Source: Escherichia phage BP32
Length of the DNA stretch: 64,000 nucleotides
Sequence record: OR906198.1
Reading direction: 5' to 3' (one strand)
The notes beneath the pieces were generated by a model, which had not been told where the DNA came from, did no database searches, and worked only from the letters and a program-made list of their open reading frames with translations. Shown here piece by piece: positions 23,876 to 45,278 of this stretch. How positions within the stretch are numbered: position 1 is the first letter of the stretch; each line of letters begins with the position of its first letter. A program made the position numbers and the translations under genes.

Positions 23876-25078
23876 ATGAAAGTATGCATTTTTATGGCTC
23901 GAGGTCTTGAAGGTTGTGGTGTAACTAAATTTTCTCTTGAGCAACGTGATTGGTTTATTAAAAATGGTCATGAAGTAACTTTGGTTTATGCTAAAGATAA
24001 ATCATTTACTCGTAATTGCGCGCATGATTATAAGTCATTTTCAATTCCAGTTTTATTGGCAAAAGAATACGATAAAACACTTAAGCTGGTAAATGATTGT
24101 GATATTCTAATTATCAATTCAGTTCCTGCTACTTCAGTAGAAGAAGACACTATTAATAACTATAAAAAAATTATTGATAACATTAAACCTTCGGTTCGTG
24201 TTGTAGTTTATCAGCATGACCATTCTTCTCTTTCTTTGCGCCGAAATTTGGGATTAGAAGAAACTGTTCGTCGAGCTGATGTTATTTTTAGCCATTCTGA
24301 TAATGGTGATTTTAATAAAGTTCTGATGAAAGAATGGTATCCGGAAACTGTTTCTCTGTTTGATGATATTGAAGAAGCACCGACCGTATATAACTTTCAG
24401 CCTCCTATGGATATTGCGAAGGTTCGATCAACCTACTGGAAAGATGTTTCTGAAATTAACATGAATATCAACCGTTGGATTGGTCGTACTACTACATGGA
24501 AAGGCTTTTATCAGATGTTTGATTTTCACGAAAAACATCTTAAACCTGCAGGACTAAGTACTATTATGGAAGGTCTGGAACGTTCTCCAGCTTTCATTCC
24601 TATTAAAGAAAAAGGAATTCCATACGAGTATTATCGTCTTCATCAAGTAGACCAAATTAAAATTGCTCCTAATTTGCCGACGCAAATTCTCGACCGTTAT
24701 GTAAATAGCGAAATGCTTGAACGCATGAGTAAATCCGGATTTGGTTATCAGCTGAGTAAGTTGGACAAAAAATATCTACAACGTTCTTTAGAATATACTC
24801 ATCTCGAGCTTGGTGCATGTGGAACAATTCCGGTATTTTGGAAATCTACGGGCGAAAATTTAAAATTCCGTGTTGATAACACTCCGTTAATTTCTCATGA
24901 TAGCGGTATCGTTTGGTTTGATGAAAATGACATGGAATCAACATTTGAACGTATTAAAGAACTGTCATCTGACCGAGCTCTTTATGACCGCGAACGTGAA
25001 AAAGCTTATGAATTTTTGTATCAGCATCAAGATTCAAGCTTCTGCTTTAAAGAACAGTTTGACATTATTACAAAATAA
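23876..25078 (+). CDS. a-gt: DNA alpha-glucosyltransferase
   Basis: 400 aa; sequence recognised as T-even alpha-gt. Confidence 0.95.
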   Translation: MKVCIFMARGLEGCGVTKFSLEQRDWFIKNGHEVTLVYAKDKSFTRNCAHDYKSFSIPVLLAKEYDKTLKLVNDCDILIINSVPATSVEEDTINNYKKIIDNIKPSVRVVVYQHDHSSLSLRRNLGLEETVRRADVIFSHSDNGDFNKVLMKEWYPETVSLFDDIEEAPTVYNFQPPMDIAKVRSTYWKDVSEINMNINRWIGRTTTWKGFYQMFDFHEKHLKPAGLSTIMEGLERSPAFIPIKEKGIPYEYYRLHQVDQIKIAPNLPTQILDRYVNSEMLERMSKSGFGYQLSKLDKKYLQRSLEYTHLELGACGTIPVFWKSTGENLKFRVDNTPLISHDSGIVWFDENDMESTFERIKELSSDRALYDREREKAYEFLYQHQDSSFCFKEQFDIITK

Positions 25079-25254: not shown

Positions 25255-25878
25255 ATGAAAAAATATATAACTTATTTAACAATATATAGTGGAGATAAAC
25301 TTCCTCCTTTTTATATTGGATCTACATCTTTAGATAGGCATTTAGCCGGATATCATGGATCAGTTTTATCTAAAAAGTATAAGAAAATTTATAATGAAGA
25401 ACTTTCAAATAACCCACATTTATTTGATTCATGCATTTTAGATGAATTTGATACGCGCGAAGAAGCTATTAAATGCGAGCTATATTATCAACGTTTGCAT
25501 GATGCGGTTAAAAATCCATTATTCTTTAATATGTCATATGCTGCTCCAAAAGGTTCATTTGGAAGAGATATTAAAGGACAAAATCATCCATTATATGGTT
25601 CTCATAATTGTAAAGGAAACATACATTCACATGACCCATTAACAGGAAAATCTGCCTTTTTACCGTATATTCCAGAAGGTTATGTAAAAGGAAGGTCAAA
25701 TAAATTTAAAGCTTCATCACATAATAAAGGTAAAAAATGGTATAATAACGGAGTTAAGCAAATGTTATGTCATGAACCTCCTGGTCCTGAATGGACAAAG
25801 GGAAAAATTAAAGAACTAGTTTCAAAAGCAGCTAAATTAGGATGGAAAAGACACCATGAAAATACTAAACTTGGGTGA
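25255..25878 (+). CDS. GIY-YIG family homing-endonuclease-like protein (Seg/I-TevI-like)
   Basis: YLTIY...(8)...FYIGSTS, then R..H, then FDSCILDEF...E aligning by eye with the I-TevI catalytic domain; 207 aa. Confidence 0.7.
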   Translation: MKKYITYLTIYSGDKLPPFYIGSTSLDRHLAGYHGSVLSKKYKKIYNEELSNNPHLFDSCILDEFDTREEAIKCELYYQRLHDAVKNPLFFNMSYAAPKGSFGRDIKGQNHPLYGSHNCKGNIHSHDPLTGKSAFLPYIPEGYVKGRSNKFKASSHNKGKKWYNNGVKQMLCHEPPGPEWTKGKIKELVSKAAKLGWKRHHENTKLG

Positions 25879-32410: not shown

Positions 32411-35107
32411 ATGAAAGAATTTTATATCTCTATTGAAACAGTCGGAAATAGCATTGTTGAACGTTATATTGATGAAAATGGAAAGGAACGTACTCGTGAA
32501 GTAGAATATCTTCCGACTATGTTTAGGCATTGTAAGGAAGAGTCAAAATACAAAGACATTTATGGTAAAAATTGCGCTCCTCAAAAATTTCCATCAATGA
32601 AAGATGCCCGAGATTGGATGAAACGAATGGAAGACATCGGTCTCGAAGCTCTTGGTATGAACGATTTTAAACTCGCTTATATCAGTGATACATATGGTTC
32701 AGAAATTGTTTATGACCGAAAATTTGTTCGTGTAGCTAACTGTGACATTGAGGTTACTGGTGATAAATTTCCTGACCCAATGAAAGCAGAATATGAAATT
32801 GATGCTATCACACATTATGATTCAATTGACGACCGTTTTTACGTCTTTGATTTGTTGAATTCAATGTACGGTTCAGTATCAAAATGGGATGCAAAGTTAG
32901 CTGCTAAGCTTGACTGTGAAGGTGGTGATGAAGTTCCTCAAGAAATTCTTGACCGAGTAATTTATATGCCATTTGATAATGAGCGTGATATGCTCATGGA
33001 ATATATTAATCTCTGGGAACAGAAACGACCTGCTATTTTTACCGGTTGGAATATTGAGGGATTTGACGTTCCGTATATCATGAATCGTGTTAAAATGGTT
33101 CTCGGTGAACGTAGTATGAAACGCTTCTCTCCAATCGGTCGAGTAAAATCTAAACTAATTCAAAATATGTACGGTAGCAAAGAAATTTATTCTATTGATG
33201 GCGTATCTATTCTTGATTATTTAGATTTGTACAAGAAATTCGCATTTACTAATTTGCCATCGTTCTCTTTGGAATCAGTTGCTCAGCATGAAACCAAAAA
33301 AGGTAAATTACCGTACGATGGTCCTATTAATAAACTTCGTGAGACTAATCATCAACGATACATTAGTTATAACATCATTGACGTAGAATCAGTTCAAGCA
33401 ATTGATAAAATTCGTGGGTTTATCGATCTAGTTTTAAGTATGTCTTATTATGCTAAAATGCCTTTTTCTGGTGTAATGAGTCCTATTAAAACTTGGGATG
33501 CTATTATTTTTAACTCACTGAAAGGTGAACATAAGGTTATTCCTCAACAAGGTTCGCACGTTAAACAAAGTTTTCCAGGTGCATTTGTGTTTGAACCTAA
33601 ACCGATTGCTCGTCGATACATTATGAGTTTTGACTTGACGTCTCTGTATCCTAGCATTATTCGTCAGGTTAACATTAGTCCTGAGACTATTCGTGGACAG
33701 TTTAAAGTTCATCCAATTCATGAATATATCGCAGGAACAGCTCCTAAGCCAAGTGATGAATATTCTTGTTCTCCGAATGGATGGATGTATGATAAGCATC
33801 AAGAAGGTATCATTCCAAAGGAAATCGCTAAAGTATTTTTCCAGCGTAAAGATTGGAAAAAGAAAATGTTCGCTGAAGAAATGAATGCCGAAGCTATTAA
33901 AAAGATTATTATGAAAGGTGCAGGGTCTTGTTCAACTAAACCAGAAGTTGAACGATATGTTAAGTTCAATGATGATTTCTTAAACGAATTATCGAATTAC
34001 ACTGAATCTGTTCTTAATAGTCTGATCGAAGAATGTGAAAAAGCAGCTACACTTGCTAACACAAATCAGCTGAACCGTAAAATTCTTATTAACAGTCTTT
34101 ATGGTGCTCTTGGTAACATTCATTTCCGCTATTATGATTTGCGAAATGCTACTGCTATCACAATTTTTGGTCAAGTTGGTATTCAGTGGATTGCTCGTAA
34201 AATTAATGAATATCTGAATAAAGTATGTGGAACTGATGGTGAAGATTTCATCGCAGCAGGTGATACTGATTCGGTATATGTTTGTGTAGATAAAGTAATT
34301 GAAAAAGTAGGTCTTGACCGCTTTAAAGAACAAAATGATTTAGTTGAATTCATGAATCAGTTCGGTAAGAAAAAGATGGAACCTATGATTGATGTTGCAT
34401 ATCGTGAGTTATGTGATTATATGAATAACCGCGAGCATCTGATGCATATGGACCGTGAAGCTATTTCTTGTCCTCCGCTTGGTTCAAAGGGTGTTGGTGG
34501 ATTTTGGAAAGCGAAAAAGCGTTATGCTCTGAACGTTTATGATATGGAAGATAAGCGATTTGCTGAACCGCATCTAAAAATCATGGGTATGGAAACTCAA
34601 CAGAGCTCAACACCAAAAGCAGTACAAGAAGCTCTCGAAGAAAGTATTCGTCGTATTCTTCAGGAAGGTGAAGAGTCTGTCCAAGAATACTACAAGAACT
34701 TTGAGAAAGAATATCGTCAACTTGACTATAAAGTTATTGCTGAAGTAAAAACTGCGAACGATATAGCGAAATATGATGATAAAGGTTGGCCAGGATTTAA
34801 ATGCCCGTTCCACATTCGTGGGGTGCTAACTTATCGTCGAGCTGTTAATGGTTTAGGTGTAGCTCCAATTTTGGATGGAAATAAGGTAATGGTTCTTCCA
34901 TTACGTGAAGGAAATCCATTTGGTGATAAGTGCATTGCTTGGCCGTCGGGTACGGAACTTCCAAAAGAAATTCGTTCTGATGTACTGTCTTGGATTGACT
35001 ACTCAACTTTGTTCCAAAAATCGTTTGTTAAACCGCTTGCGGGCATGTGTGAATCGGCAGGTATGGACTATGAGGAAAAAGCTTCGTTAGACTTCCTGTT
35101 TGGCTGA
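32411..35107 (+). CDS. 43: DNA polymerase (family B)
   Basis: 898 aa; exonuclease and polymerase motifs (DTDS); sequence recognised. Confidence 0.98.
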   Translation: MKEFYISIETVGNSIVERYIDENGKERTREVEYLPTMFRHCKEESKYKDIYGKNCAPQKFPSMKDARDWMKRMEDIGLEALGMNDFKLAYISDTYGSEIVYDRKFVRVANCDIEVTGDKFPDPMKAEYEIDAITHYDSIDDRFYVFDLLNSMYGSVSKWDAKLAAKLDCEGGDEVPQEILDRVIYMPFDNERDMLMEYINLWEQKRPAIFTGWNIEGFDVPYIMNRVKMVLGERSMKRFSPIGRVKSKLIQNMYGSKEIYSIDGVSILDYLDLYKKFAFTNLPSFSLESVAQHETKKGKLPYDGPINKLRETNHQRYISYNIIDVESVQAIDKIRGFIDLVLSMSYYAKMPFSGVMSPIKTWDAIIFNSLKGEHKVIPQQGSHVKQSFPGAFVFEPKPIARRYIMSFDLTSLYPSIIRQVNISPETIRGQFKVHPIHEYIAGTAPKPSDEYSCSPNGWMYDKHQEGIIPKEIAKVFFQRKDWKKKMFAEEMNAEAIKKIIMKGAGSCSTKPEVERYVKFNDDFLNELSNYTESVLNSLIEECEKAATLANTNQLNRKILINSLYGALGNIHFRYYDLRNATAITIFGQVGIQWIARKINEYLNKVCGTDGEDFIAAGDTDSVYVCVDKVIEKVGLDRFKEQNDLVEFMNQFGKKKMEPMIDVAYRELCDYMNNREHLMHMDREAISCPPLGSKGVGGFWKAKKRYALNVYDMEDKRFAEPHLKIMGMETQQSSTPKAVQEALEESIRRILQEGEESVQEYYKNFEKEYRQLDYKVIAEVKTANDIAKYDDKGWPGFKCPFHIRGVLTYRRAVNGLGVAPILDGNKVMVLPLREGNPFGDKCIAWPSGTELPKEIRSDVLSWIDYSTLFQKSFVKPLAGMCESAGMDYEEKASLDFLFG

Positions 35108-35120
35108 TAGAATAAATCTA

Positions 35121-35141
35121 GGGACCTCCGGGTCCCTTTTT
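35121..35141 (+). terminator. rho-independent terminator
   Basis: gggacc-tccg-ggtccc followed by T5. Confidence 0.8.
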
Positions 35142-35224
35142 CATACAAGTAATATAAATCTATACTTAGGAAAAATAGATGATTCTGGGCCCTTTGAATT
35201 CATTAAAAATTTTTTCACAAAATG

Positions 35225-35254
35225 GTTTACATCCCGGTTCCTTTATGGTACTAT
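35225..35254 (+). promoter_or_regulatory. T4-type early promoter with conserved leader
   Basis: gtttac...17 bp...tactat; leader nearly identical to 8492-8543. Confidence 0.65.
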
Positions 35255-35288
35255 ATAACTATCAACTGATACGGATTTGGAGAATGAA

Positions 35289-35669
35289 ATGAAAATCGCT
35301 ATTTTGGTTATTGCATTGGGTCTTACTGGTTGTGTAGCTCAAGGACCAGTAGTAAATCAGTCTGATGTAGGAAAAATTGTAAACTGTTCAAGCAAATTTT
35401 ATAATCCTAATGTTAAGTGTTATAAAGAAGCTCCAAAACAGACAGTAGAACAAATGCAGGCGAATTTTGACGAAGCTATTCGTCCAGATGAATCTGCCCA
35501 AGCATATCGTAATTCAGATGTAATTACACGCGAAGAAAAAATTGAAAGCTACTGCGCTGAACTTTGGGCTAATTGGGCTAATAATTACCAATGGCGTACT
35601 GGTAAAAATGCTCCGATGGAGTATGTAGTGAATTCTTATAATTCATGTGTAAAAAATTTGACTAAGTGA
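35289..35669 (+). CDS. predicted lipoprotein
   Basis: signal peptide with lipobox LTGC; GGAGA RBS; 126 aa. Confidence 0.6.
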   Translation: MKIAILVIALGLTGCVAQGPVVNQSDVGKIVNCSSKFYNPNVKCYKEAPKQTVEQMQANFDEAIRPDESAQAYRNSDVITREEKIESYCAELWANWANNYQWRTGKNAPMEYVVNSYNSCVKNLTK

Positions 35670-35676
35670 GGAAAAC

Positions 35677-35928
35677 ATGGAAACTTTAGTAGCAGGTTCA
35701 ATTTTTATGGTTTTAGTTTCAGGCGTGTTGGCTATTATTATATACATGCTTCCATGGTTCATCGCCTTGATGCGTGGGTCAAAATCGACAGTAGGAATCT
35801 TTTTTACATCTTTACTGTTTAACTGGTCAATCATTGGTTGGTTTATTACATTTATTTGGTCAATTGCGGGTGAAACCAAAAAGTCTGCACAGCCAAATCA
35901 AGTAATTATCATCAGAGAGAAGGAATGA
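35677..35928 (+). CDS. imm: immunity to superinfection membrane protein
   Basis: 83 aa, two TM helices; position between 43 and 42. Confidence 0.8.
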   Translation: METLVAGSIFMVLVSGVLAIIIYMLPWFIALMRGSKSTVGIFFTSLLFNWSIIGWFITFIWSIAGETKKSAQPNQVIIIREKE

Positions 35929-36074
35929 AAAGCAAAATTATAGCAGTGTTGCTTTTAATCTTGATGATTATAATAAGTATATACTATAGTGTAACGGTTC
36001 CTTGCATGATTCCAACTATTATTTTAGGTTGGGGTTTATTACTGTTACAAGTTAAATATGAATGTATCAATTGA
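35925..36074 (+). CDS. small hydrophobic peptide (49 aa)
   Basis: ATGA overlap with imm stop; below the ORF track cutoff. Confidence 0.4.
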   Translation: MKSKIIAVLLLILMIIISIYYSVTVPCMIPTIILGWGLLLLQVKYECIN

Positions 36075-36081
36075 GGTTTAA

Positions 36082-36822
36082 ATGATTAGTGACTCTATGA
36101 CAGTTGAAGAAATCCGTCTTCATTTGGGGCTTGCATTAAAAGAAAAAGATTTCGTAGTTGATAAAACTGGTGTTAAAACTATTGAAATTATTGGCGCATC
36201 ATTTGTAGCAGATGAACCGTTTATTTTTGGCGCTCTTAATGATGAATACATTCAGCGTGAACTTGAATGGTATAAATCTAAGAGCTTGTTTGTTAAAGAT
36301 ATTCCAGGTGAAACACCAAAGATTTGGCAGCAGGTAGCATCTTCTAAAGGCGAAATTAACTCGAATTATGGTTGGGCTATCTGGTCAGAAGATAACTATG
36401 CTCAGTATGATATGTGTTTAGCTGAACTTGGTCAAAATCCTGATTCTCGGCGTGGTATCATGATTTATACTCGTCCATCCATGCAGTTTGACTACAACAA
36501 AGATGGTATGTCAGATTTCATGTGTACGAATACAGTACAGTATCTGATTCGTGATAAGAAAGTCAATGCAGTAGTTAACATGCGCTCAAATGACGTGGTC
36601 TTCGGATTCCGCAATGATTATGCGTGGCAAAAATACGTACTAGATAAATTAGTATCTGATTTGAATGCAGGTGATTCAACTCGTCAGTATAAAGCAGGTT
36701 CCATTATATGGAATGTCGGAAGCCTTCACGTGTATTCTCGTCATTTTTATTTGGTCGACCATTGGTGGAAAACTGGCGAAACTCATATTGCGAAAAAAGA
36801 TTATAATGGTGAGTGGAAATGA
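36082..36822 (+). CDS. 42: dCMP hydroxymethylase
   Basis: 246 aa; thymidylate-synthase-like fold; sequence recognised. Confidence 0.95.
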   Translation: MISDSMTVEEIRLHLGLALKEKDFVVDKTGVKTIEIIGASFVADEPFIFGALNDEYIQRELEWYKSKSLFVKDIPGETPKIWQQVASSKGEINSNYGWAIWSEDNYAQYDMCLAELGQNPDSRRGIMIYTRPSMQFDYNKDGMSDFMCTNTVQYLIRDKKVNAVVNMRSNDVVFGFRNDYAWQKYVLDKLVSDLNAGDSTRQYKAGSIIWNVGSLHVYSRHFYLVDHWWKTGETHIAKKDYNGEWK

Positions 36823-37661
36823 TTCAATTCGTAATTCCAAGCTATCAACGTGTAGGGGCAGTTTCTGCCCTTGATATGTTTCCATCTGATTATGAACCAC
36901 ATATTGTAGTACGTGAACATGAAGAAAAAGCTTATTATGACGCTTACGGGTCTAGAGCTAAAATTATAACTATTCCTGATGATGTCAATGGAATTGCTGG
37001 TACTCGTAAAGCGATTACTGATATGTATGCAGGTCAGCGAATTTGGATGATTGATGATGATACTACTATTCGTATGAGTTCAATGCGAAAGAAAGATGAT
37101 CGTCGCTGCGTAGATAAAATTAATCAGTTAACTCGTGAACAATTCTATGAATTGATTCAATACGTTGAAGATGCCATGGATTGCGGGTATTATCACGGTC
37201 ATGCTCGTTTACCTATTTTTAAAATTACTTCATCTTGGGGTAATTATCGTGAAAATTCATATGGATTCACGAATACATGGTATGACCTTGGAAAACTTAC
37301 AACAGAACAAATTGGGTATGGAAAAATTGATTTATGCGAAGATATGTATGCATTTCTCAATTTAATTAATCAAGGTTATCCGCATTTGGCCTTGTTCAAA
37401 TATCTGGTTGTATCCGGAAAAGCACAGGCTCCCGGTGGATGCAGCTCAATTCGTAGTAATTCTAAGCATAATAGAGCTCTTGAGCAAATCAATAAAGAGT
37501 TTCCAGAGCAAGCTCGTTGGAAAACTTCTAATATTGAAAAACGAAAATCATTAGGTGAAGAAGACGAGCCATTAAAGGTTCTTCGCATGTGTGTTTCGCG
37601 CAAAGAAAAGTCAGAAGCGTTTCATAAGTTTAATGCTATTCATCCAATAGCAGTTGATTAA
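36819..37661 (+). CDS. GT-A-like glycosyltransferase at the beta-gt locus (not T4 beta-gt; possibly a T2/T6-type beta-glucosyl-HMC-alpha-glucosyltransferase)
   Basis: 280 aa with DDD motif (WMIDDDTT); sits between 42 and uvsX; sequence unlike T4 beta-gt as I recall it. Confidence 0.55.
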   Translation: MIQFVIPSYQRVGAVSALDMFPSDYEPHIVVREHEEKAYYDAYGSRAKIITIPDDVNGIAGTRKAITDMYAGQRIWMIDDDTTIRMSSMRKKDDRRCVDKINQLTREQFYELIQYVEDAMDCGYYHGHARLPIFKITSSWGNYRENSYGFTNTWYDLGKLTTEQIGYGKIDLCEDMYAFLNLINQGYPHLALFKYLVVSGKAQAPGGCSSIRSNSKHNRALEQINKEFPEQARWKTSNIEKRKSLGEEDEPLKVLRMCVSRKEKSEAFHKFNAIHPIAVD

Positions 37662-37738
37662 TGCCTAAATTTATTGTGTTATAATTACCCTATCTTTAAC
37701 CAGTGAGGAAAATATAATGATGCCTATGGAAAAAATGA

Positions 37739-38920
37739 ATGTCTATTGCAGATTTAAAATCCCGTTTGATTAAAGCTTCCACTTCTAAAATGACTGCTGA
37801 ACTGACTACATCTAAATTCTTTAATGAAAAGGATGTAATCCGTACAAAAATTCCAATGCTCAATATCGCTATTTCCGGCGCGATTGATGGTGGTATGCAG
37901 TCTGGTTTAACCATTTTTGCAGGTCCTTCTAAACACTTTAAATCAAATATGTCTTTGACTATGGTTGCGGCGTATTTGAACAAATATCCTGATGCGGTTT
38001 GTCTATTTTATGATAGCGAATTTGGTATTACTCCAGCTTATTTGCGATCCATGGGAGTTGACCCGGAACGAGTAATTCATACACCAATCCAGTCAGTTGA
38101 ACAACTGAAAATTGATATGGTGAATCAGCTTGAAGCTATTGAGCGCGGTGAAAAAGTTATTGTATTCATCGACTCAATCGGTAATATGGCTTCTAAGAAA
38201 GAAACGGAAGATGCCTTGAATGAAAAATCTGTGGCAGATATGACTCGTGCTAAATCACTGAAGTCATTATTCCGTATTGTTACTCCTTATTTTAGTATTA
38301 AAAACATTCCATGTGTTGCGGTTAACCATACAATTGAAACAATTGAAATGTTTAGTAAAACCGTGATGACAGGTGGTACAGGCGTAATGTATTCGGCTGA
38401 TACTGTATTCATTATCGGTAAGCGTCAGATTAAAGATGGTTCTGATCTTCAGGGGTATCAATTTGTTCTAAATGTAGAAAAATCTCGTACCGTCAAAGAA
38501 AAAAGTAAATTCTTTATTGATGTTAAATTTGACGGTGGTATCGATCCTTATTCTGGATTGTTAGATATGGCTCTTGAATTAGGATTTGTAGTAAAACCTA
38601 AAAATGGTTGGTATGCTCGTGAATTTCTTGACGAAGAAACCGGCGAGATGATTCGCGAAGAAAAATCTTGGCGCGCAAAAGATACCAATTGCACTACATT
38701 CTGGGGTCCTTTATTTAAGCATCAACCATTCCGAGATGCTATTAAACGTGCTTATCAGTTAGGTGCTATTGATAGTAATGAAATTGTTGAAGCTGAAGTC
38801 GACGAATTGATTAACTCAAAGGTTGAAAAATTTAAATCTCCAGAAAGTAAAAGTAAATCAGCAGCTGATTTAGAAACTGACCTAGAACAGTTAAGTGGTA
38901 TGGAAGAATTTAATGAATAA
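37739..38920 (+). CDS. uvsX: RecA-like recombinase UvsX
   Basis: 393 aa; Walker A GPSKHFKS; sequence recognised. Confidence 0.97.
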   Translation: MSIADLKSRLIKASTSKMTAELTTSKFFNEKDVIRTKIPMLNIAISGAIDGGMQSGLTIFAGPSKHFKSNMSLTMVAAYLNKYPDAVCLFYDSEFGITPAYLRSMGVDPERVIHTPIQSVEQLKIDMVNQLEAIERGEKVIVFIDSIGNMASKKETEDALNEKSVADMTRAKSLKSLFRIVTPYFSIKNIPCVAVNHTIETIEMFSKTVMTGGTGVMYSADTVFIIGKRQIKDGSDLQGYQFVLNVEKSRTVKEKSKFFIDVKFDGGIDPYSGLLDMALELGFVVKPKNGWYAREFLDEETGEMIREEKSWRAKDTNCTTFWGPLFKHQPFRDAIKRAYQLGAIDSNEIVEAEVDELINSKVEKFKSPESKSKSAADLETDLEQLSGMEEFNE

Positions 38921-39251
38921 AGATGATTTAGATTTAGAAATTATCGATGAATCCCCCTCTTCGGAGGGGGAAGAAGAAAGAAAAGAACGTCTTTTTAATG
39001 AATCTCTTAAGATAATTAAATCTGCCATGGAAAATGTTATCCAGGAGATTGTCATTAAACTAGAAGATGGTTCTACACACATTGTGTATGTGACAAAATT
39101 AGATTGGGTTGATGGAAAAGTCGTAATGGACTTTGCTGTTCTTGACCAAGAAAGAAAAGCTGAGTTAGCTCCTCATGTAGAAAAATGTATTACAATGCAA
39201 CTACAAGATGCATTTAATAAAAGGTCAAAGAAAAAATTTAAATTCTTTTAA
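38913..39251 (+). CDS. 40: gp40 head assembly protein
   Basis: ATG overlaps uvsX stop; position between uvsX and 41. Confidence 0.7.
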   Translation: MNKDDLDLEIIDESPSSEGEEERKERLFNESLKIIKSAMENVIQEIVIKLEDGSTHIVYVTKLDWVDGKVVMDFAVLDQERKAELAPHVEKCITMQLQDAFNKRSKKKFKFF

Positions 39252-43361: not shown

Positions 43362-44701
<1,340 letters not shown>

Positions 44702-44759: not shown

Positions 44760-45278
44760 ATGGCTTACTTTAATGAATGTTCACAACTGATTGAAGGCGC
44801 TGATAAAGCTCAAAACGAATACTGGGATATTCTCGGTGATGAAAAAGACCCGCTGCAGGTTATGCTTGATATGCAGAAATCTTTACAGGTTCGTTTAGCT
44901 AAAGATAAACCTGAATATAACCGTCATCCTGATGATTTGGCTACTGCTGGTGAAGTTGTTGATTGGCTACGTAATCAGAAAGATTATATTGACGATGAAT
45001 TCCGTGAACTTCTGACATCTCTTGGCGGTATGAGCAATGGCGAAAAAGATGCATCTGCTGTATGGAAGCCTTGGAAAGCTCAACACGGTGAACGCCGCGA
45101 AACTCTAATTACTGATTTGTCTCCACAAGACCAGTTGGAAATTAAATTCGAAATGATTGATATTCTTCATTTCGTTCTGAACATGTTCCAAGGTCTTGGT
45201 CTTACGGCTGAAGAAATCTTTAAACTTTATTATCTGAAAAATGCTGAAAACTTCGCTCGTCAAGACCGAGGTTATTAA
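44760..45278 (+). CDS. 56: dCTP pyrophosphatase (dCTPase/dUTPase)
   Basis: sequence recognised; AAGGAAA RBS before ATG 44760. Confidence 0.93.
   Translation: MAYFNECSQLIEGADKAQNEYWDILGDEKDPLQVMLDMQKSLQVRLAKDKPEYNRHPDDLATAGEVVDWLRNQKDYIDDEFRELLTSLGGMSNGEKDASAVWKPWKAQHGERRETLITDLSPQDQLEIKFEMIDILHFVLNMFQGLGLTAEEIFKLYYLKNAENFARQDRGY

Follow-up and report, generated by a model that had tools for sequence, protein, structure and literature searches.

Identification of a probable T2/T6-type secondary DNA glucosyltransferase gene at the beta-gt locus of Escherichia phage BP32

Glucosyltransferase genes of described phages

The ba-gt genes of phages T2 and T6 encode enzymes that produce beta-1,6-glucosyl-alpha-glucosyl-hydroxymethylcytosine (gentiobiosyl-hmC), which was reported at 5% in T2 and 72% in T6 (PMC6024577), T6 being the reference phage for a high level of this modification. 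When ba-gt was deleted from T6, only alpha-glucosyl-hmC was found, the DNA could be degraded by the DNA glycosylase Brig1 and the phage was more sensitive to Brig1 (PMC11078745). GmrSD also targets gentiobiosyl-hmC (bioRxiv 10.64898/2025.12.06.692756), and BrxU cleaves every modification tested (PMC13390438).

The distribution of these genes has been surveyed repeatedly. The combination of the alpha-glucosyltransferase gene a-gt with ba-gt was found in twelve RB phages, and the T4 pair (a-gt with b-gt) in RB55 and RB59 only (PMC6024577). Among 753 phage genomes, a-gt and b-gt occurred together in only six (PMC13216743). Ten new Tequatroviruses were described as carrying 'TAGT at the position syntenic with T4 beta-GT' (PMC13390438), TAGT (TET-associated glycosyltransferase) being the Pfam family to which the ba-gt product belongs.

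The gene between gene 42 and uvsX

The window analysed here is the whole 64,000-nucleotide stretch from Escherichia phage BP32 (sequence record OR906198.1). An initial annotation had proposed that a 280-aa glycosyltransferase is encoded at 36819-37661, between gene 42 and uvsX, in the slot where T4 carries a 351-aa beta-glucosyltransferase. The two neighbours were confirmed by domain matches and the reading frame was found to be uninterrupted. The length and place given for the T4 gene were right; T4 also has segA there. The features of the locus are as follows:

36082..36822, plus strand: gene 42, dCMP hydroxymethylase, which makes the hmC precursor (246 aa; Thymidylat_synt match at 5e-16, thymidylate-synthase family)
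36819..37661, plus strand: ba-gt (TAGT) coding sequence, probable beta-glucosyl-HMC-alpha-glucosyltransferase, 280 aa (reading frame, identity to T2 and T6, Pfam, PHROG and GT-A model)
37739..38920, plus strand: uvsX, the right flank of the locus, 393 aa (RecA and T4_UVSX_C domains)
36805..37750, unstranded: cassette without nucleotide homology to T4, replacing T4 b-gt and segA (blastn against T4)

The ba-gt reading frame (280 aa, plus strand) runs from an ATG at 36819 to a TAA at 37659-37661 and ends 77 nt upstream of uvsX. The program-made list of open reading frames placed its start at a GTG at 36813, two codons before this ATG; the annotations of T2, Geo, Solly, TB37, CP and other phages use the ATG that corresponds to 36819. 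The ATG overlaps the stop codon of gene 42 as ATGA and is preceded, 6 nt upstream, by the Shine-Dalgarno-like sequence GGTGAG; ba-gt would be translationally coupled to gene 42 through this overlap. A scan for promoters and terminators around ba-gt returned counts near the shuffled expectation and no convincing signal. The terminator scan flagged a G+C-rich hairpin at 36853..36873 (plus strand), about 35 nt into the ba-gt coding region, with a stem of about 8-9 bp and a UUU loop; it is kept in T2 and T6 and its local fold z-score is only -1.95. Elsewhere at the locus, a 49-aa hydrophobic open reading frame without a Pfam match lies at 35925..36074 (plus strand), between imm and gene 42. The annotations of Geo, Solly, TB37, CP and EL list it as a 'phage protein' of 150 nt; those of T4, T2 and T6 do not. 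The RefSeq label for gene 42 is 'thymidylate synthase'.

The 280-aa protein was 98% identical to T2 ba-gt over its full length (274/280) and 97% identical to T6 ba-gt over 280 aa. It matched PHROG 842, 'beta-glucosyl-HMC-alpha-glucosyltransferase' (6.5e-89), and the Pfam family TAGT (PF20691) with 38.8 bits, above the gathering cut-off of 27.5 bits, the match spanning residues 3-207 of the protein and positions 2-205 of the 205-position profile. The locus was collinear with T2 and T6 at 95-96% nucleotide identity (blastn of window 35001-39000). These matches agree with the T2/T6-type beta-glucosyl-HMC-alpha-glucosyltransferase that had been proposed, and we put at roughly 93% the probability that the reading frame encodes a T2/T6-type secondary DNA glucosyltransferase with a predicted T6-like DNA pattern. 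From its near-identity to the T2, T6 and Solly enzymes, the protein is expected to use UDP-glucose as donor and alpha-glucosyl-hmC in DNA as acceptor, forming a beta-1,6 linkage.

The alignment with the T4 and T2/T6 enzymes that the initial annotation had suggested was carried out: the T2 and T6 proteins matched over their full length, and T4 b-gt gave no match. No full-length homology to T4 b-gt was found, and the gene is not that of T4. BLASTP between the two proteins (280 and 351 aa) reached a best E of 3.3, and tblastn of T4 b-gt across the whole 64-kb window gave no match at E <= 1. In blastn of window 35001-39000 against T4, homology stopped at 36804 and restarted at 37751, inside uvsX, with gene 42 being 95% identical in nucleotides to T4 gene 42 up to position 36804. 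Because homology to T4 breaks at 36804/37751 while T2 and T6 stay collinear, this is a clean cassette difference, of 946 bp in the window against 1941 bp in T4 (b-gt and segA). Nucleotide identity to T4 was 95% on the gene 42 side (35001..36804) and 87% on the uvsX side (37751..39000), which suggests that the tract exchanging the glucosyltransferase cassette reached into uvsX.

We also considered that the reading frame might be a diverged T4-type b-gt, a GT-B enzyme that adds a single beta-glucose to hmC. Its position in the T4 b-gt slot would fit, and several database records label the gene 'b-gt'; the length of 280 aa against 351 aa, the best E of 3.3, the cassette without nucleotide homology and the predicted GT-A rather than GT-B fold (see below) do not. 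With BLASTP, the fold search, blastn and tblastn all against it, this explanation was rejected and given no weight.

The ba-gt gene was found full-length in 474 phage records at >= 90% nucleotide identity, and the T4-type b-gt in 29 records, mostly listed as T4 itself, plus RB55 and RB59. Together with the published surveys, these counts mark ba-gt at the locus as the standard state of the genus. The proposal of a 'different' glycosyltransferase at the beta-gt locus thus held in so far as the enzyme is unlike that of T4; as something unusual it did not hold, since ba-gt is the Tequatrovirus norm and T4 is the exception. With dN/dS of 0.02-0.06 (against T2, T6, Geo, Solly, TB37 and CP), ba-gt is under strong purifying selection, and this value and the 474 full-length records identify it as a real gene and not a chance reading frame. 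It is an ordinary T2/T6-type gene, already known, with published roles in gentiobiosyl-hmC formation and Brig1 evasion. Labels in the databases are muddled: the 351-aa T4-type b-gt of RB55 and RB59 (our records H66 and H67) is called 'beta-glucosyl-HMC-alpha-glucosyl-transferase', and the 280-aa ba-gt of T2 and PP01 (LC348380 / LC348379) is named 'b-gt'.

Predicted fold and putative active site

Searching the PDB sequences with the protein gave nothing meaningful (best E = 0.93, to unrelated RNA-binding proteins), and the fold was therefore tested on a predicted model. The AlphaFold2 model was built from an 11-sequence alignment, with a mean pLDDT of 82 and a pTM of 0.84, and low-confidence loops at residues 89-101, 135-139 and 202-205. 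Foldseek against the PDB returned 213 matches at E <= 0.001, and the best 50 of the 213 were all glycosyltransferases, led by GT-A enzymes of the GT2 family (WrtF, AvpGT, RmlT, K4CP, TarP and TarS). The model consists of a single Rossmann-like alpha/beta/alpha domain that matches solved GT-A structures; the top fold matches were GT-A, and the two-domain GT-B fold was not seen in the model. The T6 TAGT was assigned a GT-A fold as a sister group to GT2 by AlphaFold3 analysis (PMC13216743), and the modelled fold of the window protein agrees with this result for its orthologue.

A word-indexed homologue search gave 12 proteins. For conservation analysis, an exhaustive HMMER search yielded 354 representatives, and 65 diverse homologues were aligned. 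The only invariant columns were R11, D80, D175, G186 and G207, all of which are present in the window protein. Three motifs are relevant to the putative active site:

36849..36851, plus strand: codon CGT for R11, the family-invariant arginine of the N-terminal IPSYQR motif (intact in the window, invariant in both alignments)
37053..37061, plus strand: DDD (DXD) motif, D79-D80-D81, GAT GAT GAT, putative metal and UDP-diphosphate site (sequence, conservation)
37338..37343, plus strand: E174-D175 ('CEDMY'), D175 being the putative catalytic base of an inverting GT-A enzyme (conservation)

The DDD motif, named in the initial annotation as typical of GT-A enzymes, is indeed present at residues 79-81, directly after model strand E74-77, and the best fold matches belong to GT2-family GT-A enzymes. 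D79 and D81 are >= 90% conserved among the 65 homologues, as expected of a DXD motif. D175 is also invariant in the 11 closer homologues; it lies about 95 residues past the DXD motif, which we take to be as in GT2 enzymes. By analogy with these enzymes, we infer that D79-D81 form the DXD metal/diphosphate site and that D175 is the catalytic base. In an inverting GT-A mechanism of this kind, a divalent metal and the diphosphate of UDP would be bound by the D79-D81 motif, and D175, as the base, would activate the 6-OH of the glucose that serves as acceptor. Inversion at C1 of UDP-alpha-glucose would yield a beta linkage, which is the linkage known for the product.

Predicted DNA modification and comparison with known systems

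The remaining genes of the modification pathway were located in the window:

23876..25078, plus strand: a-gt, DNA alpha-glucosyltransferase, 400 aa, which makes the alpha-glucosyl-hmC acceptor (Pfam AGT PF11440, 2.4e-236)
44760..45278, plus strand: gene 56, dCTPase/dUTPase, 172 aa, of the hmC pathway (dUTPase_2 match; length and position as T2 gene 56)

With a-gt, gene 42, gene 56 and ba-gt all present, the full pathway from hmC through alpha-glucosyl-hmC to gentiobiosyl-hmC is encoded. In the proposed order of events, gp42 and gp56 would, with the replisome, place hmC in the phage DNA, the phage alpha-glucosyltransferase would attach an alpha-linked glucose to hmC, and ba-gt would link a second glucose, taken from host UDP-glucose, beta-1,6 to this alpha-glucose, the product being gentiobiosyl-hmC. 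This product is expected to mask alpha-glucosyl-hmC from Brig1 and to give no protection against type IV enzymes of the GmrSD/BrxU type. Both gentiobiosyl-hmC and the effect on host defence that had been ascribed to such an enzyme are published for T6 (PMC11078745).

A further reading frame was noticed near a-gt, 207 aa long, at 25255..25878 (plus strand), between a-gt/47.1 and gene 47 and overlapping the start of gene 47. Its match to the GIY-YIG nuclease domain is weak (E = 9e-4) and does not reach the Pfam cut-off. T4, T2 and T6 lack it at that place, and phage Some has an annotated reading frame of equal length next to 47.1; the frame is probably an inserted homing endonuclease gene of the seg-like kind.

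An arabinosyl-type system, as in RB69 and Mosigvirus, was dropped as a candidate, because a-gt is present in the window and the wild Tequatroviruses measured, which have the same gene pair, carry glucose-based modifications (PMC13390438). It is also conceivable that ba-gt is a primary transferase acting directly on hmC, or that it transfers a sugar other than glucose, as the distant 'solitary' TAGT homologues may do. TAGT homologues without a-gt or b-gt occur in 288 of 753 phage genomes, and TAGT occurs alongside b-gt in some phages, so that acceptor specificity varies within the family (PMC13216743, PMC6024577). At 97-98% identity to the T2 and T6 enzymes and with a-gt in the window, however, it is very unlikely that donor or acceptor has changed. 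Moreover, T6 deleted for ba-gt keeps alpha-glucosyl-hmC, which shows the T6 enzyme to be secondary (PMC11078745), and in wild phages that carry the same two genes, gentiobiose is present and other sugars are not (PMC13390438). We regard a primary or non-glucose activity as exceedingly improbable and retain the secondary glucosyltransferase as the preferred reading.

The extent of modification was considered by comparing the window with six loci from phages whose virion DNA has been measured (Solly, TB37, CP, Geo, EL and BGP). [quoted passage not shown] The window TAGT differs from those of Solly and TB37 by 4 residues, from that of CP by 5 and from those of Geo, EL and BGP by 9. The window a-gt differs by 2 residues from that of Solly, by 4 from that of T2 (396/400 identical, 99%) and by 35-36 from those of Geo, T6 and T4 (T6: 35/400). 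As both window enzymes group with the high-gentiobiosyl set, a T6/Solly-like pattern is the best prediction, and the virion DNA is predicted from the sequences to be T6-like, gentiobiosyl-hmC making up roughly two thirds, bare hmC about a third and mono-alpha-glucosyl-hmC only a small share. T2 qualifies this prediction: its a-gt is nearly identical and its TAGT differs at just 6 residues, yet its gentiobiosyl-hmC is reported at 5%. Gene presence does not fix the extent of gentiobiosylation, which cannot be read from sequence with confidence, because T2 (5%), T6 (72%) and Geo, EL and BGP (about 40%) all have enzymes >= 97% identical to that of the window. The initial claim of a different DNA glucosylation pattern thus stands for the type of enzyme, which is of T2/T6 type and without similarity to T4 b-gt, and does not extend to how much gentiobiosyl-hmC is made.

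Three residues of the window TAGT (S23, K92 and K226) are absent from every phage with measured DNA. K92 and K226 are present in the representative (P0001) of a 485-member cluster, from which S23 is absent; S23 occurs in one IMG/VR relative (L010).

Residue 11 of T2 ba-gt is His (CAT), and Arg was found in the window and in every other homologue examined. The T2 codon lies at L001:13105-13107 (LC348380, minus strand), aligned with window 36849..36851. Allele counts were obtained by megablast with exact 31-mers: the CAT 31-mer matched 8 phage records, of which seven are named T2 and the eighth is SV76, with a genome as long as that of a T2 record. The CGT 31-mer matched 106, the two together covering just 114 of the 474 records, since the 28-nt word is interrupted by other polymorphisms. 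R11 was also present in all six Durham phages and in all five IMG/VR relatives, an IMG/VR scan of 5 loci being too few for allele frequencies. The restriction of H11 to T2 is well supported but not exhaustive. R11H may be a hypomorphic allele private to the T2 lineage and is a plausible cause of the low (5%) gentiobiosylation of T2. This is a mildly new lead that could account, in a way open to testing, for the long-known contrast in amount between T2 and T6. A broader proposition is rather doubtful: that the window ba-gt is a fully active wild type, that R11H and not a T2-type or T6-type design causes the T2/T6 contrast, and that the a-gt/TAGT allele pair sets the ratio, the window being T6/Solly-like.

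Lesions were found in two T6 records. MH550421 has an amber TAG at codon 10 (L002:12951-12953), its coding sequence being annotated from Met20 (261 aa), and AP018814 has lost one Asp of the DDD motif in frame (DDD to DD, 279 aa; L004:2135-2974). The cause is either an accumulation of ba-gt mutations in laboratory stocks or sequencing error. The window ba-gt is free of such lesions, with R11 kept, DDD intact and no stop codon.

These alleles bear on whether the window ba-gt could be weak or inactive, as it apparently is in laboratory T2, leaving the DNA with mostly mono-alpha-glucosyl-hmC and little gentiobiosyl-hmC. The low level in T2 (PMC6024577) occurs with an enzyme 98% identical to that of the window and an a-gt 4 aa away, and the two T6 records would mean that the gene can be lost on laboratory hosts. 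The window gene, however, lacks those lesions and is under strong purifying selection, and its closest measured relatives, Solly, TB37 and CP, contain about two thirds gentiobiosyl-hmC (PMC13390438). We consider a weak or inactive ba-gt very unlikely and favour an active enzyme with T6-like output.

For annotation, ba-gt places the phage among the Tequatroviruses of the common type, with alpha-gt + TAGT. The expected gentiobiosyl-hmC should allow partial escape from Brig1, a glycosylase specific for alpha-glucosyl-hmC, and leave the phage sensitive to enzymes of the GmrSD/BrxU type, a prediction useful for judging the host range of phage-therapy candidates.

Among known systems, the TAGTs of Solly, TB37 and CP (Tequatroviruses of the Durham Collection) are the closest proteins from phages with measured DNA. 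Solly lacks dam and the adjacent restriction-enzyme-like gene, whereas the window has both, a combination reported only in Geo, EL and BGP (PMC13390438). In the window, the latter gene is a 186-aa open reading frame at 43362..43922 (plus strand), directly upstream of dam (43922..44701). It resembles the restriction endonuclease families DpnII (E = 0.0022) and BanI weakly, below threshold, and differs from Geo_034 by only 2 aa; T2 has a 546-nt hypothetical gene there.

T2 ba-gt (BBC14657.1; Q06717, 280 aa, in PMC6024577) shares with the window gene its length, the locus between gene 42 and uvsX and the ATGA overlap, and differs by six substitutions (R11H, S23T, K92R, I101V, K226R and P251S). 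T6 ba-gt (ggt; Q06718) occupies the same locus and has N40, G55 and H106 where the window protein has Y, D and R. The bacterial GT2 enzymes (WrtF, AvpGT, RmlT, TarS, TarP and K4CP) have just 7-16% sequence identity to the window protein, and their acceptors are teichoic acid, glycans and lipid-linked sugars, not DNA. T4 b-gt resembles ba-gt in its slot downstream of gene 42, its UDP-glucose donor and its beta-linked product on phage hmC DNA; it is unrelated in sequence and fold (351 aa, GT-B), and acts on bare hmC, whereas ba-gt acts on alpha-glucosyl-hmC.
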